Positions 4,660 to 33,901 are shown, counted from the stretch's first letter. The stretch: 64,000 bases of DNA from Sulfurospirillaceae bacterium (GCA_033723415.1 JAWVXD010000001.1:384001-448000); one strand, 5' to 3'. Made by a program: numbers and translations. Notes: generated from the letters alone by a model not told the origin.

Positions 4660-4691
4660 ATAAAATGATGTATATAAAAAGGAGCGGTTTT

Positions 4692-5849: not shown

Positions 5850-5850
5850 A

Positions 5851-7572: not shown

Positions 7573-7591
7573 CATATAAAGGGAGATTATC

Positions 7592-8266: not shown

Positions 8267-8274
8267 GAAAAGAC

Positions 8275-8817: not shown

Positions 8818-8841
8818 TAAAGGTAGAGAAAGGTAAAGGAA

Positions 8842-10530: not shown

Positions 10531-10540
10531 GACAAATAAT

Positions 10541-11764: not shown

Positions 11765-11866
11765 GAGTTTTGGCTGCTTTGTTTTTATCTGTTTTTATCT
11801 TGAAATGCTATCACTTTTATACTTAATTTTTGTGTTATAATATCGAAATTTTAAAGAAGGCTACTT

Positions 11867-13381
11867 TTGAGCGACATTATATTATGTACATTTAACGCAA
11901 GATACACTCATACATCCATAGGACTCCGATATATCTATGCTAATCTAAAAGAACTAAGAGAAAATTCAAAGATCATAGAATTTGTTATAAATACAAGCAT
12001 AGAAGATGCGGTAGAAAAAGTTTTGAATGAAAGTCCAAAGATCATAGGCATAGGAGCTTATATCTGGAATGCCGTAGAAGTCAGTGATTTTATAGATCTA
12101 GTGAAAAAAATCTCACCTGATACGATTATTGTAGTAGGAGGGCCGGAAGCGAGTTATTTTCCTCACAGAGTCGATTTCAGCCAGGCCGATTACTTTATAC
12201 TAGGCGAGGGTGATGTTGCTTTTTATGACCTGTGTAAAGCTATATATGAAGATAGGGCACCAAAAGAGAAAAATATAAAAGCACCCATAGTAGATATGAG
12301 CCAGATTGAACTTCCGTATAAATATTATGACGACAATGATGTAGCCCATAGGTACGCATATGTAGAAGCAAGCAGGGGCTGTCCTTATAAGTGTGAATTT
12401 TGTCTCTCTTCACTTGATAAAAAAGTACGTCACATTGATGCCGCTAGATTTTTAGATGAGATTGAAATACTCTGGAATAGAGGAGTGAGAAGTTTCAAGT
12501 TTATAGACAGGACATTTAATCTTAGGATAGAAACGGCAAATAAATTGATGGATTTTTTCTTATCAAAAGAGGGAACTTATTTTGTGCATTTTGAAGTCAT
12601 ACCTGATCATTTTCCTGAGTCTTTAAAAGAGAGGATCGTGCAGTTTCCACCAGCTTCTTTACAGCTAGAAATAGGGATTCAGACACTCAATCCTGATATT
12701 TCCAAAAACATAAATAGAAAACTTAATATAAAGAAGATCCAAGAAAATCTTGCTTTTTTAGAAAATCAAACAAAAGCACATCTTCATGTAGATTTGATTG
12801 CGGGACTTCCAGGAGAGAGCTTGGAAGGCTTTGGAGAAAATCTTGACAAATTACATAAAATGACAAACTGTGAGATTCAACTGGGTATACTCAAAAAACT
12901 CTCAGGCACGACACTAAATAGACATGACAAAGAATACGGGATGGTATACTCAGACAAACCGCCATATGACATACTGCAAAATGATCTTATACCGTTTGAA
13001 AAAATGCAAGAAATGAAACGATTTGCAAGATTTTGGGATTTAGTATATAACAGTGGAAATTTTAAAAAATGTGTCGATTATATCTGGAGTGATGGAAAAG
13101 TTTACGACGGATTTTTGGCCTTTTCAAACTGGTTGTACAAGCAGACAGAATCTACATGGCAAATTTCTCTAGATAGACTGGCTAAGCTTTTATATGAGTA
13201 TTTAACTATAGAGTTAAATGTAGATATGATAGAGCTAAAAGATCGACTCATAGAAGACTTAAGTGTAGTAAGAGGACGTAAAATACCAAAATTTTTAAGG
13301 ATTGAAGATAACAAACAAAATAAAAAAGAAAACGATACTCCTACGTTCAACAAACGACAACTAAAACATTCCGGGATATAG
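11867..13381 (+). CDS. B12-binding radical SAM protein (DUF4080-type)
   Basis: N-terminal B12-binding domain (GGPEAS); SRGCPYKCEFC CxxxCxxC. Confidence 0.9.
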   Translation: MSDIILCTFNARYTHTSIGLRYIYANLKELRENSKIIEFVINTSIEDAVEKVLNESPKIIGIGAYIWNAVEVSDFIDLVKKISPDTIIVVGGPEASYFPHRVDFSQADYFILGEGDVAFYDLCKAIYEDRAPKEKNIKAPIVDMSQIELPYKYYDDNDVAHRYAYVEASRGCPYKCEFCLSSLDKKVRHIDAARFLDEIEILWNRGVRSFKFIDRTFNLRIETANKLMDFFLSKEGTYFVHFEVIPDHFPESLKERIVQFPPASLQLEIGIQTLNPDISKNINRKLNIKKIQENLAFLENQTKAHLHVDLIAGLPGESLEGFGENLDKLHKMTNCEIQLGILKKLSGTTLNRHDKEYGMVYSDKPPYDILQNDLIPFEKMQEMKRFARFWDLVYNSGNFKKCVDYIWSDGKVYDGFLAFSNWLYKQTESTWQISLDRLAKLLYEYLTIELNVDMIELKDRLIEDLSVVRGRKIPKFLRIEDNKQNKKENDTPTFNKRQLKHSGI

Positions 13382-13382
13382 A

Positions 13383-14114
13383 TTACTTCCAGATATCTTC
13401 TTCGTCTAAAGATGGATTATTTTGCAATATCTTGTATGGTTCGTAATTTGCTTTGTAATTTAGACTATTGCAGTCTTTTACATAATAGCCAAGATAAATC
13501 CAGTCTAAGTTAAAATTTTTAGCAAGTTGAATTTGAACATAGATTGAATATCTACCAAGCGAAAAGTCTGCATATTCTGGATCATAATAAAAATAAATGG
13601 AAGAAATTCCATTGTCCATAAAATCAATAAGATCAACTGCTACAAGTTTATTATCGATAAAGTAAAGCACCTCTTTACCAAATTTTCCTGCTCCTGACAT
13701 ATATAGATCAAAATAACTACTTGGTTTTATTTTATAGCTTTTCCAACCTTTTTTATATTCCATATGTGCATGATACTTTTCATAAATTTCAAGATGTTCA
13801 TTTGAAAGGGTTGGTTTTTGTATAGTATATACTGTTTTTTGATTTTTCCGGATGGTTCGTCTTGCACTTTTGCTAAAAGTATAATTTTTTGCATCTATTT
13901 TCAGACTTTTACATTCGTTGCAATTATCACAATTTGGTCGGGAGTAATAATTACCAAATCTTCTCCAGCCTCTTTTTACCAGTTTATCGTTTAAACTACT
14001 AGTACAGTTCTCTATATATTTATATTCCATTCTAGAGCGTTTATCACTAAGATAAGAACATTGATTCGCTAAAGTTGAAAACTCGATAATTTTGGTGGAT
14101 AGCTGCATATTCAT
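13383..14114 (-). CDS. Bacterial arginyl/leucyl-tRNA protein transferase (ATE/Bpt family)
   Basis: CSYL, GWRRFG, SSIYFYYDP, SLG and YLGYYV..C.SL.YK motifs. Confidence 0.9.
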   Translation of the reverse strand: MNMQLSTKIIEFSTLANQCSYLSDKRSRMEYKYIENCTSSLNDKLVKRGWRRFGNYYSRPNCDNCNECKSLKIDAKNYTFSKSARRTIRKNQKTVYTIQKPTLSNEHLEIYEKYHAHMEYKKGWKSYKIKPSSYFDLYMSGAGKFGKEVLYFIDNKLVAVDLIDFMDNGISSIYFYYDPEYADFSLGRYSIYVQIQLAKNFNLDWIYLGYYVKDCNSLNYKANYEPYKILQNNPSLDEEDIWK

Positions 14115-20616: not shown

Positions 20617-23478
20617 ATGTCCGAGACTTGCAATCGTAGACCAAAGTGTACACATCAAAAATATGGTGATTCTACGAAGTGTATCTTGCATTGTGATAAA
20701 TCAAATTTTAACGATGATGATATAAGATTTTTTTGGGAAAAAATACGGGAAGAATATATTCAGTACTCTTATCCTGATATTTCTAATGAGATTATCATAG
20801 AAGATGTAATCTTCCCTAAATTTGGAATTTTTAACAGGTATAACACATATTTTTTTCAAGGCAATTGTAGATTCCTTCATAATGTAAAATTTATAAAGTG
20901 TATTTTTACAGATAATTTTGATTTATCACAAGCCGAATCTAGCCAAAAGATAACATTTGATAATTGTACTTTCTATGGAGATATTCAGTTCAGCCAGTCA
21001 AATACAATAGAGATAATAAATAATTCTCAGTTTAAAAATGAAGTCTCATTTGGACATTCCTGCTGGAATAAATTAGAGATAAAAAGCACCAAGTTTTTTC
21101 AAGATACAAAAATATACATAAAAAATGATTTAAATATAGATGATTGTACTTTTAATAATGATGTCTTAATAGATGGTTTTACTACTTTGAACTTAGGTAT
21201 TAAAAACGGATCATATAAGAAACTAGTAACCATAAGTAATACCAAAAGTATAAAGCTTGAAGATGTTAAATTGAACTCAGATGTAAATTTCAGTGGGACT
21301 AATGATAATATCGATATAAAAAATATCGAATTTAAGAAAGATGTGACTTTTGATGCATTTAATAATTTACACTTAAACAACACCCAGTTTCATCAAAAAA
21401 GCAATTTTAGTCCAAACCCATATCATGACATCACTTTTGACAACACAAAAATGAATGATGTGGAATTACATTCTGGGAATACTTTGACTATCGTTAATTC
21501 TAGTGAAGTCAATGGAAATCTAAAGCTAAACGAAGTATATCAAAAGTTAAATATTGAAAATTGTAATATTAAGAAAAACTTGAATGTTGGCAATGTCAAG
21601 GAGATTATATTAAAGTGGAGTAGACTTGAAAAAAACTCAGTATTTAGCGGTGTATATAATGATGTAGATATCTTGGAATGCTCATTTAAAGACTTGACAA
21701 TAAATGCAACCAATACAATAAAAATAAGTGACAGTAAAATTACTGGTGACCTTGATTTGCTTGGACAAGACTATAAAGATATATCTGCCAGCCACACTGA
21801 GATTTCTGGTACGATACAAATAGGTAAAGCGACAAAAATAGAGTTAATTGATCTAAAACCAAATCCATCTCTAAAACTGATAAATGATGAATATGAAGAT
21901 GTCAATATAAAAGACTCAAGATTTACCGATGTTAAAATGAACTCTATAAAGGTATTAAATATTCAAAAGACTACAATAAATGGTATATTTAGTTTATTGG
22001 GAGAACAAAATCAAAATTTAACCTTTAATACGGTTAAATTTAAAAATAGATGTGATTTTCCTAATATTACTAAGTTGATTTTCAATAAAAGCAGTTTTGC
22101 AAAAGATGTGAATTTTAATACTTTAGGCAGGTTAGTTTCAAATCAAACTCAATTCAATGAAGACGTGAAATTTTTAGCAGAATGCACAACTATTGAACTT
22201 GAAAATTGCGAATTTCATCAAAAAATGCAACTCTCAAAAGTTACAAATTCGTTGGATTTCAAATCTTGTTGCTTTAAAGGGGAGGTCGATTTCAGGAATG
22301 GTGAATTTAAGGTAGTAAATATACTTTCTTCAACTTTTGAAGGTGATTTATTGTTATCCTCATCCATAATAGAAAAAATTCATCTAGATAAGATAACAGA
22401 AGAATTGGCTGAAAATAACTCATTTTCTTCCGTAGATTTTACTGAATCACAAATTAAGTATATTACTATAGCCAACTCTAATTTTAGTGGTACATTAAAA
22501 TTTACAAAGTTACAGCAAACACAATCTTTATTATCCTTAGATAATATTACAACGTCGACTATTGAATGTTTGATGATTGAACATAGTACGATAATGAACT
22601 TATTTAGGAGTTCCAAGCATCTAATAATTAACAATTTTACACTAGAAAATGTAAAATTAGACACAAATAGTTCAGAAATAGATTTAACAGATATAAAAAT
22701 AAGTGAACTAAAATTCAATAAAATAAGTATCTTAAAAAATATGAATTTTAGTGAAATGAAGATAAAAAAATTCATAATAGGCAATTCAAACATAGAACAT
22801 GTATTTAGAATAAAATACTCTGATATAGGTACTTTTACACTCATATCTAGTACTTTTGAAGACTTACAGATAATAGACAATAAATGTGAGCATTTTGATG
22901 AAGAAAAAAAATTAATATTGAGAAACACGACAATAAAAAATGCTGTATTAGACAAATTAAGATATAACAGTTTTATTATGAATGATGCTCATGTAAGTGA
23001 TGTTAAAATAGGTTATGTAAAGTTCAAAAAGGGGAGTAGAGAAACAAATAGATTTTTCAAAAATTATTATGATTCAATTAGTGATTATATTACAGCAAAT
23101 ACATATTATAAACAAGAGATGGAAGAACAACTCAAAGCTTCTTCTACTGATAACGGGGAGAAATTTGTTTTATGGATAGGGAAAACAGTTTCTAATTTTG
23201 GGCAAAGTTGGAGTCGACCTCTTTGCTTAATGATTTGTTTTTCAATTTTCTTTTTTATGTATATGCATTGGCAAATATTTTATAGCTACGGATGGCATTA
23301 TTTATGGCAAAGTAAATTAACTATTTGGAATGAATTTTGGGAATTTTTAAATCCATTTGTAAGAACAATTGATCCACAATACAAAGGAAGTTATAGTATT
23401 TGGATATTTCATAAAATATTGATGGCTATTCTCATGTATCATTTTATTGTAGCAGTAAAAAGAAAAACAAAAAGATAA
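20617..23478 (+). CDS. Large pentapeptide/beta-solenoid repeat protein with N-terminal Cys/His motif and C-terminal membrane domain
   Basis: C..C...CILHC N-terminus; many (I/L)x(F/I)xxxxFxxxxxF repeats; SNFGQSWSRPL followed by TM helices. Confidence 0.7.
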   Translation: MSETCNRRPKCTHQKYGDSTKCILHCDKSNFNDDDIRFFWEKIREEYIQYSYPDISNEIIIEDVIFPKFGIFNRYNTYFFQGNCRFLHNVKFIKCIFTDNFDLSQAESSQKITFDNCTFYGDIQFSQSNTIEIINNSQFKNEVSFGHSCWNKLEIKSTKFFQDTKIYIKNDLNIDDCTFNNDVLIDGFTTLNLGIKNGSYKKLVTISNTKSIKLEDVKLNSDVNFSGTNDNIDIKNIEFKKDVTFDAFNNLHLNNTQFHQKSNFSPNPYHDITFDNTKMNDVELHSGNTLTIVNSSEVNGNLKLNEVYQKLNIENCNIKKNLNVGNVKEIILKWSRLEKNSVFSGVYNDVDILECSFKDLTINATNTIKISDSKITGDLDLLGQDYKDISASHTEISGTIQIGKATKIELIDLKPNPSLKLINDEYEDVNIKDSRFTDVKMNSIKVLNIQKTTINGIFSLLGEQNQNLTFNTVKFKNRCDFPNITKLIFNKSSFAKDVNFNTLGRLVSNQTQFNEDVKFLAECTTIELENCEFHQKMQLSKVTNSLDFKSCCFKGEVDFRNGEFKVVNILSSTFEGDLLLSSSIIEKIHLDKITEELAENNSFSSVDFTESQIKYITIANSNFSGTLKFTKLQQTQSLLSLDNITTSTIECLMIEHSTIMNLFRSSKHLIINNFTLENVKLDTNSSEIDLTDIKISELKFNKISILKNMNFSEMKIKKFIIGNSNIEHVFRIKYSDIGTFTLISSTFEDLQIIDNKCEHFDEEKKLILRNTTIKNAVLDKLRYNSFIMNDAHVSDVKIGYVKFKKGSRETNRFFKNYYDSISDYITANTYYKQEMEEQLKASSTDNGEKFVLWIGKTVSNFGQSWSRPLCLMICFSIFFFMYMHWQIFYSYGWHYLWQSKLTIWNEFWEFLNPFVRTIDPQYKGSYSIWIFHKILMAILMYHFIVAVKRKTKR

Positions 23479-23504: not shown

Positions 23505-24560
23505 TTAAAACAGATCCGTGGTTTTTTTCAATCTCTCTTGGTCAAAATGCGTATAAATTCTGGATGTATTGATATCTGCATGACCGAGGGATTCTTGAAC
23601 GAGTACCAAATCTCTGTTTTTTTGGTAGAGCAGGGTGGCAAACGTGTGTCTTAGCATATGGCAACCGTTTTTCTCTTTCCTTAAGCCCGCACTCATAAGT
23701 ATCTGCTCAACTAAGCGGCTTAGATAGGCTTGTGTTAATTTTGTGCCCTTTTGATTGCAGAACATCAGCCCGTCTTCACAATTTCTGATCTCAAGCCATG
23801 CAGCCAAGTCCTCTTTGATCACGCGCTCTCTTATCATGACGACTCTGGATTTATTTCCTTTTCCTGTTATCTTTATGATGTAATTATCTTCTTCTTTGAA
23901 AAAGTCCTTGATCTTGACACTGATCGCTTCTCCGACTCTGATGCCTGTATAAAGGATTAGTTTTATGACCAAGCGGTTCCTAGCGCCAAGTTCAGGAGTT
24001 TTGTAATCAAATGCATCGATTGCATTGATAAATCTAGAGGCTTCTTCTTTGTTAAGAAAAGAGGGCAGTTTGACACCGCTTTTCCCGCTCAAACCGCCCC
24101 AATTTTTAAGCTCTATACCATATCTGTAGGCGTTGCCGTTTTCATCTTCATTTTGTTTATCTATATAACCAAAAAAGCCAAGTAGGGCGATACGGTAGTT
24201 TTTTTTACTCGCATCTGACAAACTTGAAGTCTCACTCGCTAAAAAATCACTCAGAAGCTCTTCATCGATCTCTTTCATAGAACCTGCACCAAATCGCATA
24301 AGATACTCATATAGCTTTTCAAGTGGACGGTAATAGACATGAACGCCACTCATACCTATATTTCTCGCTTCTTTTAAAAGATTTGTTAGAGTTTTTATAT
24401 CACTGGTACCTTTTGCTAGATTTTGGATAATGATTGCCAGTTTGTCTTTGTCCGTTACTTGTCGATTTGAAAGAGTCGTAACCTTGTTGCGTATAAATCT
24501 ACTAAGCCAAAAAAGATACGTTTGACTAAAAGTCGACTCAAGATCAAGAGAATACCTCAT
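23505..24560 (-). CDS. xerH: XerH chromosome-dimer resolution tyrosine recombinase (host)
   Basis: Catalytic TGIR, GKGNK, HMLRH and LGH..INTSRIYTH; XerH-specific motifs SKKNYRIALLGFFGYIDKQN and LTQAYL..EKNG.H; difH site immediately upstream. Confidence 0.92.
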   Translation of the reverse strand: MRYSLDLESTFSQTYLFWLSRFIRNKVTTLSNRQVTDKDKLAIIIQNLAKGTSDIKTLTNLLKEARNIGMSGVHVYYRPLEKLYEYLMRFGAGSMKEIDEELLSDFLASETSSLSDASKKNYRIALLGFFGYIDKQNEDENGNAYRYGIELKNWGGLSGKSGVKLPSFLNKEEASRFINAIDAFDYKTPELGARNRLVIKLILYTGIRVGEAISVKIKDFFKEEDNYIIKITGKGNKSRVVMIRERVIKEDLAAWLEIRNCEDGLMFCNQKGTKLTQAYLSRLVEQILMSAGLRKEKNGCHMLRHTFATLLYQKNRDLVLVQESLGHADINTSRIYTHFDQERLKKTTDLF

Positions 24561-24586
24561 AATGTGCCTTTTTTTGATATTTTCAT

Positions 24587-24595
24587 ATTATAGCA
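24587..24595 (-). promoter_or_regulatory. Extended -10 promoter (TGCTATAAT) of xerH
   Basis: Reverse complement of attatagca, 26 bp upstream of the xerH ATG. Confidence 0.65.
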
Positions 24596-24608
24596 AAATT
24601 TAGCTTAA

Positions 24609-24642
24609 TTGTATTGGAAACTGTAATTTCCAAACTCTTATT
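24609..24642 (+). other. difH site / attL of the provirus
   Basis: ttgtaTTGGAAA-ctgtaa-TTTCCAAact: 7-bp inverted arms around a 6-bp core, matching the Campylobacter-type difH pattern, next to xerH. Confidence 0.88.
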
Positions 24643-24708
24643 TGGATTTATTGGCTTGAAACTTAAACGAGTGAGAAATTATGAGTTAAAACTTAAAAAG
24701 AGTATGTC

Positions 24709-25332
24709 ATGATAGACATAAAACTCATTGATAAGTTTAAAAATGGCCGTACAACGGTTGAGAATGATATTTTACTAGATAGTACCTTGACAGCAACTGA
24801 AAAGATAGTCTATATGTACATCGAAATGCTATCGCACAAAGATAACTACTGTTATGCGACAAATATACAGATATCGGATCTTACCGGACAAACAATAGAC
24901 TCATTGAAACAAGCATTTAAAAAACTCAAAAAGAAAAAATACATTGTAGTCGATACGCTACAAACGCGCACACCATACAAGCGCCGTATATTCACGGAAA
25001 CACGTTTTTTACGTGCTTGGAATCAAAACACCCTACCCCGTGACTGTACGGTAAAAGAGCCAATAAAACGGCCTGACGAGCTAGATAGACAAGCAATCAG
25101 CAAGTCATTTCCAAAGTTTAGGAAATTCATAAAATTATATCTTACAGAAAATCAATTTAACATCACTACACCGGGCGAACTTCAAAACAAAACTATCATG
25201 ATCAAAAAGAACGGCTACTACACAAGCATTTGGGATGCGCGAGATCTCACAAAAGATGAAAGCGTAACGTTTGAAATGCTGATGTTCGATAAACGCGAAA
25301 CATTGCTAGATAATTTTTTCAATAAGGAGTGA
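24709..25332 (+). CDS. Winged-helix replication initiator-like protein (proviral)
   Basis: ENDILLDSTLTATEKIVY...YCYATNIQISDLTG...FKKLKKKKYI is the HTH_36 / replisome-organiser N-terminal pattern. Confidence 0.65.
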   Translation: MIDIKLIDKFKNGRTTVENDILLDSTLTATEKIVYMYIEMLSHKDNYCYATNIQISDLTGQTIDSLKQAFKKLKKKKYIVVDTLQTRTPYKRRIFTETRFLRAWNQNTLPRDCTVKEPIKRPDELDRQAISKSFPKFRKFIKLYLTENQFNITTPGELQNKTIMIKKNGYYTSIWDARDLTKDESVTFEMLMFDKRETLLDNFFNKE

Positions 25333-25520
25333 AAATGCAAATCAAAAAAGGTGATATTATTGTCTATAAAGTCGGTAAGAATACAAAGCAAAGCAAAGTT
25401 AGAAAGATGAACTTTGATAATAGTGCTTCAATTTTTGCAAAAGAAAAGATCATACCTTGGGATAATATTTTAGGCGTATGCTCTACTATAAAGGATCATC
25501 ATGATAATCGAAATAAATGA
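25329..25520 (+). CDS. Proviral hypothetical protein (small, beta-rich)
   Basis: AAGGAG SD; overlaps the rep stop codon. Confidence 0.65.
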   Translation: MKMQIKKGDIIVYKVGKNTKQSKVRKMNFDNSASIFAKEKIIPWDNILGVCSTIKDHHDNRNK

Positions 25521-25716
25521 GGAAGATTATGACTTTATCATGTATCTTATCAGAGAGGAAATATATGATAAAAAAGACAGTTTAGAGATACTTAAAGGCA
25601 AAGATCATTTTTATGGTAACGAAGATCCATATAGGATAAAGAGGATCAAAGAGTTAAAAAGAGAGATTAGAAAGATTATTGAACTAAGGAGAGCTTTAAA
25701 ACGAGGAATAAAATAG
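25501..25716 (+). CDS. Proviral hypothetical protein (charged, coiled-coil)
   Basis: AAGGA SD; overlaps the previous gene. Confidence 0.65.
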   Translation: MIIEINEEDYDFIMYLIREEIYDKKDSLEILKGKDHFYGNEDPYRIKRIKELKREIRKIIELRRALKRGIK

Positions 25717-25726
25717 CTGTTTAACT

Positions 25727-25807
25727 CTCATATAGGGATACCGTAATTTCCCTATATGAGCGTTTTCATGTTACGGAATGAAAGCGCCTTTATATCAAAA
25801 TAAAGGC
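25727..25807 (+). promoter_or_regulatory. Three back-to-back hairpins with complementary loops; structured RNA/terminator between early and late genes
   Basis: 12-bp stem 25727-25760, 10-bp stem 25760-25787 and 8-bp stem 25786-25807; loop ccgtaa pairs with loop ttacgg. Confidence 0.6.
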
Positions 25808-25812
25808 ATAAA

Positions 25813-26262
25813 ATGGGAATAACAAATTTTTTCAGCGGTTTATTTAGCAGCGGAGCCGCAAAAGTAGTCGATGCGATCGGCAATGCAGCAGATAAACTCT
25901 TTACAAGCGATGCAGAGCGTTTACAATTCCGTAATGATCTACAAAAAGAGCTAGACGATCTCAAAGTCAAACTCAATGATGCACTTGCGGCATACGACAA
26001 AGAGATCACGACACGCTGGCAAAGCGATAACGAACACATCATCACGCGCTTAGTGCGCCCTCTTTCGTTTATATACGTTCTCGTCATATTTTCATTTATG
26101 GCGCTACTTGACGGAAATATCGGAACATTTCATATCAACACGGCTTATTTGCCTATATTTCAAGGGTTACTTGGAACTATGGTTGTCGCCTACTTTGGCA
26201 GTCGTGGTATCGAAAAAGTATCAAACATAATAAAAAAATCAAATCAAGGAGATAACCAATGA
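25813..26262 (+). CDS. Holin (GTA 3TM-holin-like family)
   Basis: DKLFTSDAER...RWQSD....RLVRPL, two TM helices, then YFGSRGIEK. Confidence 0.8.
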   Translation: MGITNFFSGLFSSGAAKVVDAIGNAADKLFTSDAERLQFRNDLQKELDDLKVKLNDALAAYDKEITTRWQSDNEHIITRLVRPLSFIYVLVIFSFMALLDGNIGTFHINTAYLPIFQGLLGTMVVAYFGSRGIEKVSNIIKKSNQGDNQ

Positions 26263-26594
26263 GTACAAAAAAGCAAATAGATCAGATCGAAGAGATAGAA
26301 GATCTACCCGATCAACTTGATCCACCAAATCCAGAGATTGAAAAGGAAAAGCCGGAAGTTGAGATAAAAGAAACTTTGACACCGGATCTCGAAAAAAAGA
26401 TTGATGAGATTGAACATAAATTAGATCAATATCATGTTCAATCTATCAAAAAAGAATTTGAAGATCATTCAAAAGAAAAACTACAAAGATCAAAATCTAA
26501 ATTTATTTGGTTATTTGGTAGTATTTGTGTTGCTAGTATTGGCTTAATACTTATAAAAAACGCTAAAAACAGCGAAACGGAGGCTAATGGATGA
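26259..26594 (+). CDS. Proviral membrane protein (acidic N-terminus, C-terminal TM)
   Basis: Overlapping ATGA start; one C-terminal hydrophobic helix. Confidence 0.7.
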   Translation: MSTKKQIDQIEEIEDLPDQLDPPNPEIEKEKPEVEIKETLTPDLEKKIDEIEHKLDQYHVQSIKKEFEDHSKEKLQRSKSKFIWLFGSICVASIGLILIKNAKNSETEANG

Positions 26595-27154
26595 GTAAAG
26601 AAGCGGTTGACGGAACGGATAATGGCGTAGAAAGGAATATTCCTTTTGAAGAAATGGGAAACAGTACGGAGGGCATTACCCGTACTGAGTTAATGGAAAA
26701 AACCGGCAAAGAACTAGCAAAAATGGCATTGCCTTATACAACTTGGAAAGAGAGTACATTATCAAAGTTATCTAAGCCAGAACTATGTGATATCATACTA
26801 ACAAAAGGAGCAAATAAAGAGCAGCAAGAGCCGAGAGCTAGAGCAGCAAGAGCCACGAGTGATAGTGAAGCAATTATCGAGACATTTCTTGCTATTGCAG
26901 AGAGTTTTAAGCTTAAAAGAGAAAAAGAGCCTTTAAATGCTACAGCCAAACAGATCTTTAAAAATAATGCCGTTAATTTAGTCGATAAAAAGGTTGAAGA
27001 GGAAACGTTAAGCAGCCACGGTGTAAATGTTACAGTGGCATTTATTGCCGGTACATTTTTAGCTATAGACGGGCTTATAGGCTTAGCAAACATCCCAACA
27101 TTCTTTTCAAAGATAAAGAGCAAACTAAATGTTAATAAAACAGAAGCAAAATAA
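26591..27154 (+). CDS. Proviral membrane protein upstream of the packaging ATPase
   Basis: Overlapping start; C-terminal TM and basic tail. Confidence 0.7.
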   Translation: MSKEAVDGTDNGVERNIPFEEMGNSTEGITRTELMEKTGKELAKMALPYTTWKESTLSKLSKPELCDIILTKGANKEQQEPRARAARATSDSEAIIETFLAIAESFKLKREKEPLNATAKQIFKNNAVNLVDKKVEEETLSSHGVNVTVAFIAGTFLAIDGLIGLANIPTFFSKIKSKLNVNKTEAK

Positions 27155-27785
27155 GATAATTACAGTTATCGGACATAAGGGCTATGGAAAAACAGCTTTA
27201 ACAGAAGCCCTTATGCTTATGTATGATAAACCGACAATTATCGCAGATCCACGATTTCAATACTCTACTTTTCAAAAGCGCCGTGTAAGCTTTAGATCTG
27301 TAGGTGATTTTAGAAAGTGGATCTATAACACGGCAAATTTCAAAGATTTTTATAAATACAAACTCGAACTCGTCGTAAATGCTTTTGATGATACATTTGA
27401 AGAGTTAGCACATATTGTGAGACAAATGAGATCTTTGATGTTTGTCGTCGATGAAGTAGATATGTTCTTAGATCCACGGGCTACAAAAAACAACTCCTTG
27501 AACAAAATTATTCAGTATGGTAGACACCACGAGATCGACATCATAACTACTTCTAGGAGACCGGCAAACATCTCGCGTAACTTAACATCTCAAACAGATA
27601 TATTTTATTTCTCTAAGTTACGCGAGCCAACTGATAAACTGTACATAAAACAAGCGATAGGTGCAGAATATGTCAGTACCGTTGAAAACTTAGAGAGATT
27701 TAGCTTTTTAGAGTTTGAAGACGAAGAACACCAAAAGATCATCACTACTTCTGAAAGAGATCTTGAACTATTACAAAGAGGGTGA
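27129..27785 (+). CDS. Genome-packaging ATPase, FtsK/HerA (A32-like) family
   Basis: Walker A GHKGYGKT, Walker B FVVDE, arginine finger GRH, TSRRP motif and REP.D; 218 aa, similar in size to STIV B204 and PM2 P9. Confidence 0.88.
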   Translation: MLIKQKQNKIITVIGHKGYGKTALTEALMLMYDKPTIIADPRFQYSTFQKRRVSFRSVGDFRKWIYNTANFKDFYKYKLELVVNAFDDTFEELAHIVRQMRSLMFVVDEVDMFLDPRATKNNSLNKIIQYGRHHEIDIITTSRRPANISRNLTSQTDIFYFSKLREPTDKLYIKQAIGAEYVSTVENLERFSFLEFEDEEHQKIITTSERDLELLQRG

Positions 27786-27810
27786 GGAAAAATCTTTGAA
27801 AGGAGGAAAA

Positions 27811-27906
27811 ATGCAAGCAAAATTGATGAAAGGCTTTGTCTTAGGTATCACCGTAGTTGTTATAAGTGGCGTTGTGGGTAAATGGATCCCATCCGTAAAA
27901 ATATAA
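27811..27906 (+). CDS. Small viral membrane protein (31 aa)
   Basis: AGGAGG SD; MQAKLMKGFVLGITVVVISGVVGKWIPSVKI. Confidence 0.75.
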   Translation: MQAKLMKGFVLGITVVVISGVVGKWIPSVKI

Positions 27907-27932
27907 AAAAATTTATCATATAAGGAAAAAAT

Positions 27933-28040
27933 ATGAATATCACAAAACTTGATGTTTATTTGGCAGCAGGTATCTTAGTTGGCATTGCAGCCGGGAAAAA
28001 ATTTGTTGATCCGATCTTAGTTTCGGTTTTGGGGGCATAG
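27933..28040 (+). CDS. Small viral membrane protein (35 aa, absent from the ORF track)
   Basis: AAGGA SD; MNITKLDVYLAAGILVGIAAGKKFVDPILVSVLGA; stop is 1 nt before the MCP start. Confidence 0.75.
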   Translation: MNITKLDVYLAAGILVGIAAGKKFVDPILVSVLGA

Positions 28041-28041
28041 T

Positions 28042-29001
28042 ATGGCGCAATCATTAAAAGTAAAAGAAAATTCCGCAACGTGGGCAGCTTCTACTCAATC
28101 CAGGATCCCTCTTAGTAGAAATTATCATGTGGAAAATTACCTTGTGAAAATAAAAGTAACACATGATAACGGGGCAACCCCTGTGTTTTATAATGAGGGC
28201 GTTTTTTCTTTAATTAACAATATACAGTTGATTGGAAATGGCAATGAAAATATTAAACAAATGCCAGCAAACAAATTATATATCGACAGTATTTTAAGAA
28301 GTGGGAAAAATGGCGGTAACTCTCTTGATACTACAGCAAACAAAACCGGACTTACAAGCTATGTTTGGGCCCGTATCAATCTAAGTATGCCAAATTCTGT
28401 TCGACCTTGGGACACTATCCTATGGACAAAACCATTCCAATCTCTCGATCTTATGATTGATTGGGCTTCAAGTGCAAATATCGGATCTAATATTACTGTA
28501 ACAGCAGCAGAAATGACAGTATTTTCAAATCAGTTAATCGGATATAGTAGAGCAAAAGGCGAAGTGATTAAATACTATGAAGAAACAGCACTTAAAGAAG
28601 AAGTGACTGGAACAAATGCTCAATTAACTTTCAATTTACCAGTAAATAAACTTTATAGAGCTATTTCTATAGTATCAACAATTAATGGCTTAAGAGCTGA
28701 TACTGTGATAAACTCTATTAAGCTAAAAAGCGGGCAAACAGTTTTTTGTGATTGGGATGCTGAAGCATTTAACGAACACAATAAAGAAACATATCGTATT
28801 GAATCATCAACAGATTTTAAAGGAATCTATGTAGTTGATTTTGCAGAGCGTGGAAGACTAAGCGATATGCTGAATACAATCGTAGCACAAGGTGGTTACA
28901 ATACTTTAGAACTTGTTTTAAACGTCACAAAACAAACGGGATCAAACTTTGTAGACGTCTATTTTGACACGGTAAAACAGACTACAGCAACGGAGGTTTA
29001 A
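28042..29001 (+). CDS. Double jelly-roll major capsid protein (STIV-like)
   Basis: 319 aa, beta-rich, in two halves; segments WAAST..RIPLSRN, FSLINNIQL..NG, LPVNKLYR, N.ETY and GIYVVDF recall STIV B345 (from memory); follows ATPase and small TM genes. Confidence 0.82.
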   Translation: MAQSLKVKENSATWAASTQSRIPLSRNYHVENYLVKIKVTHDNGATPVFYNEGVFSLINNIQLIGNGNENIKQMPANKLYIDSILRSGKNGGNSLDTTANKTGLTSYVWARINLSMPNSVRPWDTILWTKPFQSLDLMIDWASSANIGSNITVTAAEMTVFSNQLIGYSRAKGEVIKYYEETALKEEVTGTNAQLTFNLPVNKLYRAISIVSTINGLRADTVINSIKLKSGQTVFCDWDAEAFNEHNKETYRIESSTDFKGIYVVDFAERGRLSDMLNTIVAQGGYNTLELVLNVTKQTGSNFVDVYFDTVKQTTATEV

Positions 29002-29002
29002 T

Positions 29003-29308
29003 ATGCCTAATTATAACGGGGATGGCACAAACGGCGGTATTTCCACCGCCTCCACTCCAATTTCAGGAACGGTAAATGGTACTGATTGGTTATCAAATAT
29101 TTTAAAGCCTATTAGTAATGCCGTTGTTACAGTTGCACAAACACAAGCACAAGTTGACGCACTAAAATCACAGACCGCTACACAACAAAATTATCAAAAT
29201 ACACAAAACGCAATTGGATCTAAAAATATCATTGGCGGTGTGGATAACAATATCTTACTTTTGGGTTTAGTTGGTGTAGTCGGAATTTACATGTTTATGA
29301 AAGGGTAA
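29003..29308 (+). CDS. Virion membrane protein (Gln/Thr-rich, C-terminal TM)
   Basis: C-terminal ILLLGLVGVVGIYMFMK. Confidence 0.7.
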   Translation: MPNYNGDGTNGGISTASTPISGTVNGTDWLSNILKPISNAVVTVAQTQAQVDALKSQTATQQNYQNTQNAIGSKNIIGGVDNNILLLGLVGVVGIYMFMKG

Positions 29309-29311
29309 ATT

Positions 29312-29698
29312 ATGGGTTTCTTTGGTGGAAGTGCTAGTAGTAGCGGAATTGTAACAAGTAGCATTAATTTTAACCCGTCAATGCAGTTTGGCACAGATAA
29401 TACAGCAAAGCCCTCTCAATCAGTAAGTCAGACACCCAAATTGACACAAACTACAAAGGATCAAGGGCTAGCAGCCGCCGCAAGTGTTGGGCTTGGTTTT
29501 GGTGGGAGTGGATCTGCAGGGCCGGCAAGTTTGGCAGAAGCTCCTCTGGTTGGATCTGCACAAACTGGAAGCGCTGCACAGCCTTTAAGTACTTTGGCAT
29601 CTAATTACAAAAAATATTTGCCTTTACTTGGCTTAGCCGGAGTTGGTGGATATATGCTAATTGTAAATGATAAGTCTGGAAAAAAGGCTAAAAAATGA
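29312..29698 (+). CDS. Virion membrane protein (Gly/Ser/Ala-rich, C-terminal TM and basic tail)
   Basis: Low-complexity body; LPLLGLAGVGGYMLIV followed by a Lys-rich tail. Confidence 0.7.
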   Translation: MGFFGGSASSSGIVTSSINFNPSMQFGTDNTAKPSQSVSQTPKLTQTTKDQGLAAAASVGLGFGGSGSAGPASLAEAPLVGSAQTGSAAQPLSTLASNYKKYLPLLGLAGVGGYMLIVNDKSGKKAKK

Positions 29699-30009
29699 GT
29701 TGGTTAAGTAGTCTTTTAGGTGGTGGAGGCAGCACAAGCTCCACTACCTCAAACACAACGGTAAGTGTAAGTCCAACTACAATTATAAATACCGATAAAC
29801 TGGCTCAAGCTATAGCAGACGGAAATGCAACACAAGCACAACTTGCACAAGCAACAATCACAGCACAAGTAGCCGAACAAAACGCAAAATTGCAACAAAA
29901 CGCGCAGATCTTTGATACCTTAAGAGCAGGCGCAAAAAAATATGCTTTTTTAAGTTTGCTAGGCTTTGGAGTTTACAAGATTTTTAAAAACAAAAGAGGT
30001 AAAAAATGA
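29695..30009 (+). CDS. Virion membrane protein (C-terminal TM and basic tail)
   Basis: Overlapping start; Ala/Gln helix; YAFLSLLGFGVY then KNKRGKK. Confidence 0.7.
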   Translation: MSWLSSLLGGGGSTSSTTSNTTVSVSPTTIINTDKLAQAIADGNATQAQLAQATITAQVAEQNAKLQQNAQIFDTLRAGAKKYAFLSLLGFGVYKIFKNKRGKK

Positions 30010-30560
30010 ATTACAACGTAATTACAAAAGATATATCTAACGGGCTATCTCTTAGTCAAAGCAATACACTTGGAAAAGGAGATTATATTATCTTAAGATA
30101 TGCGCCGGATCTTGCGAATGTACGAGTGAGATTAAACAGCCCTGATGCTCCTGCAATAAGTATGATACAAGATGACAGCATCAATGCAAAAGGCATAAAT
30201 CTTGTATATATCGAGTGTGACCCAGTAGCAGCAGAAAAGATAATCTTTGCCCAGGGCAATACAGATCTAGACTTTCAAATCAATCCGGCTCCTGCTCTTA
30301 AAACTGTAAATGTAAACGGATCTTTTATGCCGCGTACGGATCAAAAACAAACGATAGCTGCAGGAGCAAATTTTATATTAGACACAACGACACTTAAAGC
30401 GATCAGGTTTCTAGCTACTGATTACGTTGATGTGTCACTCAATGGCAGTGCAATAAACTATCAAATGCTAGAAGATGAGATCTACACGGGTAATATCACG
30501 TCGTTAAAGTTTACAAACAACACGGCTTCAGCCATTGATCTTGTAATATGGGAGATGTAA
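30006..30560 (+). CDS. Beta-rich virion protein, penton/vertex candidate
   Basis: Alternating hydrophobic beta-strand pattern; lies between the membrane proteins and the spike. Confidence 0.5.
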   Translation: MNYNVITKDISNGLSLSQSNTLGKGDYIILRYAPDLANVRVRLNSPDAPAISMIQDDSINAKGINLVYIECDPVAAEKIIFAQGNTDLDFQINPAPALKTVNVNGSFMPRTDQKQTIAAGANFILDTTTLKAIRFLATDYVDVSLNGSAINYQMLEDEIYTGNITSLKFTNNTASAIDLVIWEM

Positions 30561-30561
30561 A

Positions 30562-30942
30562 ATGTTAGGTATTTCAAGAGCTTTGGTAGAAAAACTTTTC
30601 GCAAAAAAAAGCGACAAAAATCAGTGTACAGCTTGGGTTGTATTTGACGGAACAACAACTCCTCCAACAATAAAAGATAGTTATAATGTTATTTCTGTTA
30701 CTAAAATTGCAGTCGGTGTCTACGATATAAATTTTACAATACCTATGAAAAATATAAACTACCAAACAAGTGGATCTGTAACAGATGATAATTCTTCTAG
30801 TGGGTTTATCTATGAAAGAGGCACTTTTGCACAAAATAGAACCGTTAATAAATGCAGAATTGTAACTATTCAGATATCTGGAGGTAATACAAGTACAGTT
30901 GATCGTTCAGGGATAACATTCAGCGCAATTGGAGGTATCTAA
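30562..30942 (+). CDS. Receptor-binding spike / tail-fibre-like domain protein
   Basis: AWVVFDG....IKDSYNVISVTK..VGVY.INF resembles a widespread phage fibre-tip domain. Confidence 0.65.
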   Translation: MLGISRALVEKLFAKKSDKNQCTAWVVFDGTTTPPTIKDSYNVISVTKIAVGVYDINFTIPMKNINYQTSGSVTDDNSSSGFIYERGTFAQNRTVNKCRIVTIQISGGNTSTVDRSGITFSAIGGI

Positions 30943-31253
30943 TGGGATATTTTAAAGTAGTTAACGATTATGTTCAAACGTGTAGTAAAAAAATAGATGA
31001 TACTTGGTTTCCAATTACTAGAGATCAAAACGGAAATATCATCGGGCCGAGTGTTCTAGTCACGCAAATTGCAGATGAACAAAAAGCAACTTCAAACGCA
31101 AAAATAATGCAGCAGATAACAGCACTTGAAAGTGAACTGATAAGACCGATGCGAGAGCTTTTAAGCTCAATTGTAACAGACAAAACCTATGCTCAAACAA
31201 AGGTAAATGACATCGAAACAAAAATTGAAGCTTTGAGGGCTCAAATTGTCTAA
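30942..31253 (+). CDS. Putative fibre assembly chaperone-like protein
   Basis: C-terminal helix QITALESELIRPMRELL...IEALRAQI, as in proteins encoded after fibre genes. Confidence 0.5.
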   Translation: MGYFKVVNDYVQTCSKKIDDTWFPITRDQNGNIIGPSVLVTQIADEQKATSNAKIMQQITALESELIRPMRELLSSIVTDKTYAQTKVNDIETKIEALRAQIV

Positions 31254-31779
31254 GAAAAAAATAATAGCCTATGGCTCTTTTTTGGTGTCATTGGTATATT
31301 TTAGGAGTTTTTTTATGTACGGATTAATTTCAAAAAAACATTTGGACGAAATTATCGTCAATGTAGTTAATACACTAGGTGGAGGTCAAAATGCTATAGA
31401 TCTTTTAAGCGAAACGGCTATGTCGGAGACACACTACGGAGATACACCGGACCTACACTTACACAGCGGTTATGGAATTTTTCAATTTGATAAGCCAGGC
31501 TTTGATGATGTAGTTGCCAGAACACCGCAAAGTACAAAGGATCTCATCAAAAAAGTCTATGACATTGACATCGATCAAGTCAGCATATTGGCGCTGCAAT
31601 GGTCGCCGCTTTTAAGTACGATCTTTGCACGACTTTTTTACATGCTTCGCCCTGGTGCGATCCCTGATACAATTCAAGGACGGGCACAGTATTGGAAACA
31701 GTATTACAACACTTTTGCGGGAGCAGGAACGGTGCAACATTATCTTAATGCAAACCAAACCGAAAGGTTTAACGCATGA
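31246..31779 (+). CDS. Lysozyme-like / lytic transglycosylase (muralytic) protein
   Basis: ETAMSET..G, GYGIFQ and A.YWKQYYNT..GAGT motifs; alternative start ATG at 31315 with AGGAG SD. Confidence 0.65.
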   Translation: MSKKKIIAYGSFLVSLVYFRSFFMYGLISKKHLDEIIVNVVNTLGGGQNAIDLLSETAMSETHYGDTPDLHLHSGYGIFQFDKPGFDDVVARTPQSTKDLIKKVYDIDIDQVSILALQWSPLLSTIFARLFYMLRPGAIPDTIQGRAQYWKQYYNTFAGAGTVQHYLNANQTERFNA

Positions 31780-32156
31780 CACCAACTTTAAATAATAATT
31801 TAGCGGATATGTTTGTTGCGTCCACACCGGTTTTGCAGACGGCACCGATACAGTCAAGCAATTTAAGTACATTTGATAAGATATTATACGGTTATGATAA
31901 TATGATCTCAAATGCTAGTAATTCAGCAGATCAAACGCTTACAGATCAAGCGATTGCACAAGAAAAATTTAAACAAAATGCATCGAATATGTATACAAAT
32001 TTTAAAGCAAGTCTTGGCAGCGCATACGATACGATCAGCAAAGATCTAAATATCTCAAAAAATATTTTGATCTATGGCAGCATTGCCGCCGGATCTCTTT
32101 TTCTTTGGGATAAGATCGGGCGTGATATTTACTACATGACACAAAAGGGGAAATAA
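31776..32156 (+). CDS. Virion membrane protein
   Basis: Overlapping start; C-terminal TM ILIYGSIAAGSLFLW. Confidence 0.65.
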   Translation: MTPTLNNNLADMFVASTPVLQTAPIQSSNLSTFDKILYGYDNMISNASNSADQTLTDQAIAQEKFKQNASNMYTNFKASLGSAYDTISKDLNISKNILIYGSIAAGSLFLWDKIGRDIYYMTQKGK

Positions 32157-32278
32157 TGCACGAAATAGCAATGTGGATGCAAATTTTAACACCGGTAGTT
32201 ATTTTGCCACTAGCAAAGACTTTAAGCGATCTAAAAAGAGACGTTGCCGTTCTTATGGAACGTACAAAGGGAATGTAA
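32156..32278 (+). CDS. Small hydrophobic/coiled-coil viral protein (40 aa, absent from the ORF track)
   Basis: TAATG overlap with the previous gene; MHEIAMWMQILTPVVILPLAKTLSDLKRDVAVLMERTKGM. Confidence 0.65.
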   Translation: MHEIAMWMQILTPVVILPLAKTLSDLKRDVAVLMERTKGM

Positions 32279-32279
32279 T

Positions 32280-32414
32280 ATGGACTTAACACAAGCAAGC
32301 AACGCAGTCGGAGCACAAATAAAAGAAGGGATCATACAATCTGGTAAAGATATCGGTTTTAAGATTACACTTGGTTTATGTATTATTGCAATCGCAATTT
32401 ATGCTAAAAAGTAG
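32280..32414 (+). CDS. Small viral membrane protein (44 aa, absent from the ORF track)
   Basis: Starts 1 nt after the previous stop; C-terminal TM ITLGLCIIAIAIYAKK. Confidence 0.65.
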   Translation: MDLTQASNAVGAQIKEGIIQSGKDIGFKITLGLCIIAIAIYAKK

Positions 32415-32439
32415 TGACGAGATCTCGTCACACTTTTTT
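32414..32439 (+). terminator. Intrinsic terminator of the viral structural operon
   Basis: Palindrome gtgacgagatctcgtcac followed by a T-tract. Confidence 0.7.
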
Positions 32440-32658
32440 AATCTCTTTTTTGTCTTAAGTTTCAAATCAACCTTAAGCCTTTTTCTATCTCGGATCTCCT
32501 GGCGCTGCACAAATCAAAACTACTATAAAATCGACATTTCATTTTTTAAAAAATTTATAAAATCGTTTAAGTTTCAAAATAACCTTAAACGATTTTATTC
32601 ATATAGATCTTCTTCTTTATGATATACTTTTCTAAAAATTTATATCAAAAGGCTTTAT

Positions 32659-33057
32659 ATGACAAAAATTATACTCTCAAGCATAGCGATATCCGCCCTA
32701 TTCTTTGGATGTGCTAGTAAAGAGCCATTATCAACCGTTGAAGCAACTGACTACGCTATGAGCTGCAATGCTCTTATAAGTGAAATTAGCGACATAAGAT
32801 CACAACTACAAACGGAAGAAACTACAAATGAAGCTAAAAATATCATCGGTAAAACTTTAACATTCGGAATTTATAGCGCAGACAATGAAAAAGCCATACT
32901 TTTGCGCGAACGTGCAAAGAGTTTACAGCTTATATATACAATAAAACAAGCAAAAAATGAGTGCAAACAACTAACTGAAAAAGATCTACAAGTAAATAGC
33001 ACACCCGTGAGAGAAATAAAAAATCTAAAAGCACAAACAAAAGAGCTTAAAAATTAA
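32659..33057 (+). CDS. Proviral lipoprotein (moron / superinfection-exclusion candidate)
   Basis: Signal peptide with lipobox FFGC; own TGaTATACT extended -10 at about 32619-32627; flanked by hairpins. Confidence 0.7.
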   Translation: MTKIILSSIAISALFFGCASKEPLSTVEATDYAMSCNALISEISDIRSQLQTEETTNEAKNIIGKTLTFGIYSADNEKAILLRERAKSLQLIYTIKQAKNECKQLTEKDLQVNSTPVREIKNLKAQTKELKN

Positions 33058-33094
33058 TTTCGCGCCAGATCTTTACGTTCAAACTCAAAAACTA

Positions 33095-33136
33095 TAAATT
33101 TACCCTTTCAGGATTAATTCTTTGAGGGTAAATTTA
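33095..33136. terminator. Hairpin downstream of the lipoprotein gene
   Basis: 12-bp perfect inverted repeat taaatttaccct / agggtaaattta. Confidence 0.55.
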
Positions 33137-33454
33137 AACAATCTCAAAAATTATAGGTACTTGCCTATAAATAAAAAAAATTGATTGTAGAGCGTTTGAG
33201 AGCGTTTTTTTACTCAATAAAATCTCAACTTCAAAAATCTTTCACATATAAACAGCTTATGTACGGTGCTTTGATCCTAAATCAAAGCACTAAAAAGCAC
33301 GCGACAGCGTGTTTCATCCTAAGAGCAAAGAAAAACACAGCCGCGAGGCTGTTTCCTTATTGAGTCGCAGCGACGCGAAAATCAAATCAAGCCTAAATAA
33401 TATTATTTATCTAAGATATCTATCAAAAAAAGACTTTGTATATATATAGGAAAC

Positions 33455-33528
33455 CTAGTGTCTCATAGACACCAGAAAGTAATGACCTAGTGTTTCATAG
33501 ACACTAGCTGTTGTCTCACAGACACTAG
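33455..33528. repeat. Three 21-bp palindromic repeats (iteron/operator-like) followed by an AT-rich tract
   Basis: ctagtgtctcatagacaccag (33455), ctagtgtttcatagacactag (33487) and ctgttgtctcacagacactag (33508). Confidence 0.8.
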
Positions 33529-33683
33529 ATAATAAAAAATTTATTAATTTTTTAAAAAATTAAGCTTGGTTTAAAAAGTTTAGTATTAGAATGGTGCTTT
33601 AAGTTTCAAAGCTACGAAGAGTAGCCGTGCAATGCTTGCAACAAAACACGGCTTACAAATACAACCTATTACGGAGGTTATAA

Positions 33684-33866
33684 ATGTATTACAATCAAAT
33701 TATATCCACAAATCCTTTCAATATACTTAAATTTTCTTCAAAATCAAAATTAACCTTAAACAAAAAAAATGTTATAAAGTTTGAAAATAATATTTCAAAA
33801 TACCCTATTTATCGAAGTTTTGAAATGGTGTCAACTATAATTTCCAAACTTTTATTAATATGCTAG
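33684..33866 (+). CDS. Proviral ORF spanning attR; C-terminus replaced on integration (80 aa in the circular form)
   Basis: Strong GGAGG SD; the frame continues through the att core into 24623-24712. Confidence 0.6.
   Translation: MYYNQIISTNPFNILKFSSKSKLTLNKKNVIKFENNISKYPIYRSFEMVSTIISKLLLIC
33833..33856 (+). other. attR: partial difH (core and right arm)
   Basis: aactataatttccaaacttttatt versus attL aactgtaatttccaaactcttatt (22/24). Confidence 0.88.
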
Positions 33867-33871
33867 ATAAT

Positions 33872-33901
33872 AGAGAGTCCAAATAATATATTGGACTCTC
33901 T
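33872..33901. terminator. Intrinsic terminator hairpin downstream of the Sel1 gene
   Basis: 11-bp stem agagagtccaa / ttggactctct. Confidence 0.65.

Follow-up and report, generated by a model that had tools for sequence, protein, structure and literature searches.

An attachment core inside an open reading frame that ends on the replication gene: a tailless, integrase-less prophage at the XerH/difH site of a Sulfurospirillaceae bacterium

Small tailless and filamentous prophages are common at dif sites, and for those that have no repressor or integrase it is poorly understood how they remain quiescent and how they become active again. The window, i.e., the whole stretch of 64,000 nucleotides analyzed here (Sulfurospirillaceae bacterium, GCA_033723415.1, JAWVXD010000001.1:384001-448000), raises this question at one short open reading frame (ORF). 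It lies at the right end of a 9.2-kb element (about 24637-33834, between attL and attR) and leads straight out of the element through its attachment site. The first-pass annotation had read it as a gene that integration splits, that is translationally coupled to rep in the free form, and that forms part of a possible lysogeny switch without a repressor.

In the integrated sequence, the ORF begins on the + strand with the ATG at 33684, 6 nt behind a strong Shine-Dalgarno (SD) sequence (GGAGG, 33673-33677), and is read for 60 aa up to the TAG at 33864-33866. Re-reading of the coordinates confirmed that this frame with its GGAGG crosses attR. The att sites share a 24-nt direct repeat (left copy 24619-24642, right copy 33833-33856, 22 of 24 positions identical), and the ORF passes through the right copy and continues into host DNA as far as its TAG. 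The attP of the free form was rebuilt from the coordinates by a script that joins the sequence upstream of the attR core to the sequence from the attL core onward. This reproduced the proposed fusion, a single frame of 80 codons whose TGA (24710-24712) overlaps the ATG of rep (24709-24711) as ATGA (24709-24712), and in which the phage's dif mimic (attP) makes up codons 51-56. The SD of rep itself is weak, as had been claimed (AAGAG, 6 nt before the ATG), and the TAGAAT and the origin repeats are indeed found upstream of 33684 and are conserved in relatives. In the order of the free form, the region comprises:

33453..33564, + strand: putative origin (ori), three palindromic iterons followed by an AT-rich tract
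33587..33592, + strand: −10-like TAGAAT, candidate early promoter, pointing outward in the prophage
33593..33683, + strand: structured 5′ leader of 91 nt with the SD GGAGG
33684..33834, + strand: 5′ part of the leader ORF, about 50-52 codons kept at attR
33699..33704, − strand: TATAAT (ATTATA on the + strand) in codons 6-7 of the leader ORF, candidate antisense promoter
24621..24712, + strand: 3′ part of the leader ORF, the last 28 codons or so, left at attL
24709..25332, + strand: rep, winged-HTH initiator, lambda O/DnaD-like, 207 aa

At attL, a residual TTG frame of 32 codons without an SD can be read (24614-24712).

The rep product matches Pfam HTH_36 (2.8e-8) and eight PHROGs, of which six stand for replication initiation, one for a DnaD-like helicase loader and one for a DNA-binding protein. 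A homolog search returned 12 proteins, namely the window's own and 11 others with identities of 53-78%. As a single query, Rep found no relatives in viral contigs or genome contigs. Used as an alignment, it found only remote HTH matches (27-39%) in the viral contigs, and in the genome contigs only L056, which is the contig L016 described below again, plus one remote match. The iterons measure 21-23 nt (33453-33528) at spacings of 32 and 21. The same layout of three iterons followed by the AT-rich tract is present in the genome G075, and in L016 the spacings are 32 and 22. With an HTH initiator, palindromic iterons and an AT-rich tract, the module has the makings of a putative lambda O-type iteron origin. 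The TAGAAT at 33587-33592 is identical in G075, has a CATAAT at the equivalent place in L016, and was not detected by a consensus promoter scan.

The att assignment itself was borne out by the repeat copies and by the identity of the left copy with the host's difH. This identity of the site, and with it the role of XerH, had been missed in the earlier reading. The features of the host site are:

23505..24560, − strand: host xerH, tyrosine recombinase of chromosome-dimer resolution, not phage-borne
24610..24636, + strand: attL = difH, functional-looking, with left arm 24610-24620, centre CTGTAA 24621-24626 and right arm TTTCCAAACT 24627-24636
33824..33850, + strand: attR, with left arm 33824-33834, centre CTATAA 33835-33840 and right arm TTTCCAAACT 33841-33850
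33873..33900: host hairpin after the Sel1-repeat gene, which would also stop an outward phage transcript
33920-35692, − strand: Sel1-repeat host gene (Pfam Sel1, 2.1e-143)

Over residues 11-349, the xerH product aligns with XerH of H. pylori (PDB 5jjv, E 1.6e-100), and its Pfam matches are Phage_int_SAM_6, the XerH-type N-terminal domain (5.9e-56), and Phage_integrase (1e-31). Matches to xerH were found in 56 of the 61 genomes of the family. An assignment of xerH to the phage was rejected; xerH and dif occur together in relatives that have no rep at the dif flank. The difH is an imperfect palindrome with arms of about 10-11 bp around a 6-bp centre and lies 50 nt from the xerH start, and a difH near xerH is described for Campylobacterota in the accessible parts of two reports (PMC5357621, PMC9765430). 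Directly upstream of xerH, the same palindrome (11-nt arm, CTATAA, TTTCCAAACT) stands in eight relatives without a flanking rep. The right flanks of these eight sites are common between the genomes and resemble the host side of attR in the window and in G075. Within the genome of 2.43 Mb, attL is the sole near-perfect dif copy (1 mismatch), and its position at 408.6 kb is some 4 kb short of the point, at about 412.5 kb, where the cumulative GC skew peaks, as read on the single contig C1 of a 17-contig assembly. The four mismatches of attR to dif all fall into its left arm, which is degenerate and phage-derived and matches the host arm in 6 of 11 positions. Judged by these sequences, attL is the host difH and attR a hybrid with a degenerate phage arm, and recombination by XerH is predicted. 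As the site is the host's difH and the recombinase the host's XerH, integration and excision would both be host Xer reactions.

Several further observations concern this site. The centre reads CTGTAA at attL and CTATAA at attR and in all dif sites of the relatives; the odd base may mark the strand pair exchanged by XerH or may be a later mutation. A second dif-like palindrome exists in the window's genome (G000:C6:118220, − strand), with four mismatches to the 23-nt pattern and a different centre. The promoter of xerH (TATAAT, 24586-24591, − strand), which the consensus scan did not report, is 20 nt away from the left arm of dif, and XerH bound at dif could influence xerH transcription. Adjoining xerH, 20617-23478 encodes a protein of 953 aa whose repeats are of the pentapeptide type and whose C-terminus is hydrophobic. 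Upstream of xerH in another genome (L030, G417:C13), dif keeps its left arm and centre, but unrelated sequence stands in place of the right arm and no rep adjoins; rearrangement or decay of the dif may account for this, or it may be left over from another element.

Between the att sites, all convincing ORFs lie on the + strand, and searches of Pfam and PHROG assigned none of the 20 element ORFs to an integrase family. Flanked by dif and a dif-like site and lacking a recombinase gene, the element classifies as an IMEX (integrative mobile element exploiting Xer). Besides rep and the leader region, it consists of:

25329..25716, + strand: two small early ORFs of 63 and 71 aa, no family match
25760-25787: terminator-like hairpin after the two small early ORFs
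25813..33057, + strand: structural, packaging and lysis module, including the holin-like gene, the ATPase, the capsid and small membrane-like proteins
25813-26262, + strand: holin-like gene (phrog_3427)
27129-27785, + strand: packaging ATPase (phrog_2666, 5.6e-22; AAA_22; weak HerA matches)
28042-29001, + strand: major capsid protein of 319 aa, double jelly-roll by predicted fold
33298..33352: GC-rich terminator-like hairpins that close the long operon

The capsid protein has 34 matches in the protein databases including the window's own, and an AlphaFold model was built from an alignment of 33 of the matches with the window's protein first. With a pLDDT of 91.9 and a pTM of 0.87, this model retrieved P3 of PR772/PRD1, the major capsid protein of STIV and P2 of PM2 as top Foldseek matches (E 3e-21 to 2e-15, probability 1.00). 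An FtsK/HerA-type ATPase gene near the capsid gene is as expected of tailless phages with a double jelly-roll (DJR) capsid, and going by the modeled fold, the element is such a phage. At the sequence level, kinship of the capsid to PM2 P2 was not found: the Pfam match to P2_C (5.7e-5, 23.5 bits) stays under the cut-off of 25, tblastn gave no match among 50,697 phage records, and the capsid alignment found nothing in viral contigs. Because of the missing match in the phage records and the sub-cut-off P2_C score, the element was not filed in Corticoviridae. Family searches, those of Pfam and PHROG among them, matched no element ORF other than rep to a DNA-binding family, and in this sense the claim that no obvious repressor gene is present stands. 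Compared with the G075 prophage, the region of the 63-aa early ORF (25336-25527) has no counterpart, and three regions (29402-30162, 30580-31294 and 31770-32104) are too diverged for blastn; the latter may hold host-recognition genes.

Four elements carry this type of rep, namely those of the window, G075, L016 and L017, two of them being close kin. G075 (labeled Sulfurospirillum sp. in its source, a sister species) has a prophage at its xerH-difH with a rep that is 78% identical, and its in-silico attP again gives 80 codons with the same SD and the ATGA. The arrangement also occurs naturally: L016 is a metagenomic contig of 2089 nt in the attP arrangement, with a rep of 61% identity. Its sequence runs from the 3′ portion of a structural gene (homologous to 32244-32414) through the iterons, the AT-rich tract and CATAAT to the leader and GGAGG; then come an ORF of 73 codons that contains a dif-like core, the ATGA junction, and finally rep. 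In an ungapped alignment, its dif core occupies the same codon position as in the window, at a peptide identity of 27%. L016 was binned into a metagenome-assembled genome (MAG) whose difH is of another type and unoccupied, and L016 is therefore not an integrated copy there. In L017 (rep 56% identical), a full dif palindrome stands 90 nt before rep, and the half to the right of dif, as read from the sequence, is open in the same register and ends with ATGA. The ATGA junction on rep is thus common to all four. Whether homologs keep the attP-spanning frame was one of the checks proposed in the first-pass annotation, in which homologs lacking it were named as grounds for abandoning the idea, and the relatives do keep both frame and ATGA. 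For the window's own element, one DNA run, available as contigs and probably the source of the assembly, showed only the integrated form.

What is conserved in the leader ORF differs from what is conserved in rep. Between the window and G075, the differences in the leader ORF are spread over the codon positions (14/13/13), with 8 synonymous and 22 non-synonymous codons, whereas those in rep concentrate in third positions (42/26/88), with 68 synonymous and 43 non-synonymous codons. At the nucleotide level, 83 of 91 positions are identical in the 5′ leader, 124 of 157 in the codons before the core and 79 of 86 from the core to rep, i.e., 91-92% for the leader and the rep-proximal part versus 79% for the pre-core codons. 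The peptide of the small ORF has no homolog but the window's own among 5.8 billion proteins in a word search or 1.8 billion in an HMMER search, and nothing above 0.81 in the Atlas; a match of 448 aa (E 6.6e-4, eight stretches) was taken as low-complexity noise. Regarding the RNA, two base pairs in the consensus hairpin of the leader are compensatory in L016, and the SD is covered by a small stem. The weak SDs of rep across the four elements read AAGAG, AAGGA or AAGGT, and each of them falls into a predicted stem in single-sequence minimum-free-energy folds, the stems differing between the lineages. Rfam gave nothing at gathering score. Because the pre-core codons show no codon-position bias, these comparisons argue that the frame, the strong SD and the stop on the rep start are selected rather than the peptide. 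By analogy with plasmid R1 and the IncI plasmids, the conserved frame and the hairpin over the rep SD fit a leader ORF that is coupled to rep.

More distant relatives extend the pattern to other dif types. G253 (capsid E 1.5e-134) and G244, both of another family, carry capsid relatives of the element at classical XerCD-type dif sites, which means that the same phage group uses both Xer systems. The element of G253 (L065, G253:C1) spans 4231-13764 with the dif CATAA-TGTATA-TTCTCTTGAAA, and the dif of the G244 element (L078, G244:C7, reverse strand) is similar. Their HTH_36 rep is distantly related to the window's (pairwise E 1e-4). In the rebuilt attP sequences, iterons and promoter are followed by an RHH gene, the attP in a stop-free frame, and rep, so that attP appears here again between promoter and rep. 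The stop-free frames of 91 and 85 codons have ambiguous starts and end 17 and 48 nt before rep, and in the lax shuffle test described below they gave 318 and 140 of 5000, individually a weak result. Overall, an attP between promoter and rep, inside an open frame, recurs across three dif types, XerCD included. G325, G367 and G312 were set aside as tests of the rep layout; they hold distant capsid relatives with other integration modules. In one of these (L066, G325:C33, the whole 9219-nt contig), a serine recombinase was noted, and L067 has a 37-nt direct repeat at 5303/14113, 8.8 kb apart.

Integration then parts rep from its promoter and coupling ORF, which was confirmed as geometry at a distance of 9.2 kb, compared with the approximately 9 kb claimed. 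In the prophage, the ori, the promoter, the leader, the SD and about 52 codons remain at the right end and point outward, and the last 28 codons or so lie with rep 9.2 kb away, behind the divergently transcribed xerH. In 24400-25000, the consensus promoter scan, which is insensitive in this host, gave no + strand match. Across the element, it called 51 sites versus 34 expected in shuffles, and it misses the TATAAT before xerH. With a scan this weak, internal or host-side promoters may exist, and a TATTAT (5/6) does lie on the + strand to the left of dif (24585-24590). In L017, a 12/12 TTGACA-16-TATAAT stands directly left of the full dif and points at rep (L017:39-91, + strand), within a flank of 70 nt that is too short to assign the promoter to host or phage. 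Downstream of its rep, the genes of L017 include a type IV pilin-like ORF, and the module of rep, leader and attP may ride a different kind of element there.

With these elements in place, the following course of events can be proposed. The temperate phage would enter the chromosomal difH through the host's XerH. In the circular form, the order would be iterons and AT-rich ori, TAGAAT, the 91-nt leader, the strong SD, the 80-codon ORF, the ATGA and rep, and after rep the operon would continue with the two small ORFs up to the terminator. Ribosomes that reach the end of the leader ORF would melt the hairpin covering rep's weak SD and start again at the ATGA, in keeping with the logic of tap/repA in R1 and repY/repZ in IncI plasmids. 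A XerH crossover at the core would cut this operon inside the leader ORF and leave its upstream half facing the host terminator, so that rep and the genes downstream of it would be largely unexpressed until Xer excision rebuilds the operon. Of this, the geometry, the conservation and the dif/XerH identity are read from the sequences, and the translational coupling and the low expression of rep in the prophage are what we infer. The first-pass interpretation as a whole is in this sense partly supported, and its last step, a silencing of rep by the separation that would be enough for lysogeny, is a candidate mechanism. Taken as one model, a XerH-using DJR IMEX whose coupling leader ORF is split and whose rep is largely off when integrated, this reading is in our estimate slightly on the probable side.

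Other readings of the same frame were weighed against it. One is that the frame is open by chance in an untranslated spacer, with attP merely intergenic before rep. The region is AT-rich, yet some of its frames contain few words that form stops; the peptide is under no constraint, and neither gene callers nor databases provide a homolog. When the sequences were shuffled by dinucleotides (20,000 shuffles each), however, the frame stayed open in only 0.04% of cases for the window, 0.085% for G075 and 0.36% for L016, so that none of the three elements exceeded 0.36%. A laxer version, which counts any frame across the core within 330 nt, gave 46, 36 and 32 of 5000, respectively. In addition, at a peptide identity of 27%, the frame retains its length and the dif core its register, and both the strong SD at 6 nt from the ATG and the ATGA stop-start persist. 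We consider a chance frame very improbable. Alternatively, the 80-aa product could be a functional protein made only from the circular form, for instance one that aids XerH integration or stabilizes it. Integration would then destroy its gene, as happens to ORF12 of the inovirus XacF1 or int of SSV1. There are precedents for this in the accessible parts of the literature, where a 5′ deletion of ORF12 of phage XacF1 delays integration and destabilizes the prophage (PMC5666396) and the TLC phage encodes a small Xer activation factor (PMC9226527, PMC6744903), and the basic C-terminal third of the peptide differs by only two amino acids between the window and G075. The RNA hairpin that covers the start of rep offers another explanation for this conservation, though, and the missing codon-position bias, the 22 non-synonymous versus 8 synonymous codon changes, the 27% identity in L016 and the lack of homologs in 5.8 or 1.8 billion proteins and in the Atlas all speak against a protein function, which makes this reading quite unlikely.

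Somewhat different is the idea that a trans-acting regulator mainly holds lysogeny and that the operon split only adds a further layer to this control or results as a side effect. Foremost among the candidates is an antisense RNA of approximately 90 nt, started from the TATAAT at 33704-33699, which would pair with start codon, SD and leader and block translation of the leader ORF and hence of rep, in the manner of CopA in R1. Its gene is intact at the right end of the prophage, so that the RNA could still be made in the lysogen and give immunity. The window, G075 and L016 all have the opposite-strand TATAAT in matching codons despite the peptide identity of 27%, but selection for the peptide (Ile-Ile) might also preserve these ATT-ATA codons, or they might be a coincidence in AT-rich DNA. 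Conservation is higher in the leader than in the codons next to it, and the minus-strand fold places a CCUCC in a hairpin loop; a conserved −35 box and a clear terminator, on the other hand, were not found for the antisense RNA. The Rfam family PtaRNA1 matches 33620-33690 (− strand) with 25.7 bits (E 0.14), far under the gathering score of 47. Precedents come from plasmids, since antisense RNAs control rep genes coupled to leader peptides in R1, IncI1 and IncI2 (PMC8053102, accessible parts), and for a trans-acting regulator in general, the relatives in G253 and G244 carry their RHH gene by the promoter. We regard a regulator of this kind as the main keeper of lysogeny as unlikely, and if the antisense RNA is real, the term "repressor-free" may hold only for proteins. 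Returning to the split leader ORF, its furthest extension would be that Xer recombination acts as a lysis-lysogeny switch without a protein repressor, that the antisense RNA gives immunity, and that this is a general design of small Xer phages, which we put forward as a tentative and rather doubtful proposal.

Phages of the IMEX type, such as CTX-phi, VGJ-phi and TLC-phi, are well known. The present element resembles them in lacking an integrase, in carrying a dif mimic and in leaving one good and one degenerate dif upon insertion, and it differs in that its host system is the single recombinase XerH with difH of Campylobacterota, not XerCD. Tailless phages at dif via XerCD, including NO16, have been reported in Vibrio (PMC9966536, PMC11630473, accessible parts). 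According to these parts, NO16 has two divergently transcribed DNA-binding genes that were proposed as repressors, whereas no minus-strand gene with a family match was found here. The closest likeness concerning attP is the inovirus XacF1/Cf of Xanthomonas, in which, as far as the available text of the report goes, the Xer attP also lies inside a phage ORF (ORF12) that is split on integration (PMC5666396). For ORF12, however, a role as regulator or immunity determinant is considered possible there, and it is not presented as a leader ORF fused to rep by an ATGA; XacF1 is a filamentous ssDNA phage of an XerCD host. With PM2, the PM2-like prophages and the PRD1 tectiviruses, our element shares the DJR fold, the small packaging ATPase and a genome of about 9-10 kb. 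As is reported in the accessible part of PMC1950889, replication modules are swapped between relatives among the PM2-like prophages, too. P12 of PM2 is a rolling-circle protein, whereas rep is an O-like HTH protein here.

The regulatory principle has relatives in quite different settings. In lambda int/sib retroregulation, a 3′ RNA-decay site becomes separated from int, and in SSV1, integration splits the phage's own integrase. As in these two cases, the position of attP would make the expression of the integrated and the free form differ; in contrast to them, promoter, leader and coupling ORF are parted from the replication initiator here, and recombination is left to a host enzyme. In plasmids, coupling of rep to a leader ORF is classical. 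Examples are tap/repA with CopA in R1, repY/repZ with Inc RNA in IncI1/IncB, and repR/repA in IncI2 (PMC8053102, in its available portion). Shared features are, to the extent that this source describes them, the stop of a short upstream ORF overlapping the rep start and a plausible antisense target, together with an initiation region of rep that is structured in the plasmids and predicted to be so here. The plasmid leader peptides given there measure 19-29 aa, compared with 73-80 codons here, where the ORF also carries the recombination site. Unlike in the plasmids, the antisense RNA is hypothetical in the present case, and there is no sequence relationship.

A search of the openly accessible articles, which covered main texts outside subscription journals, found neither an IMEX that uses XerH nor a dif mimic inside an ORF coupled to rep. 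As far as this literature reaches, the element would be the first mobile one seen to use XerH, the single-recombinase system of Campylobacterota, and difH and attP form a natural substrate pair for studying XerH. With the recombination site inside the coupling ORF, expression of rep would have to differ between prophage and free phage. If the model is true, it would be Xer activity at cell division that determines when the prophage is induced, and not a repressor.
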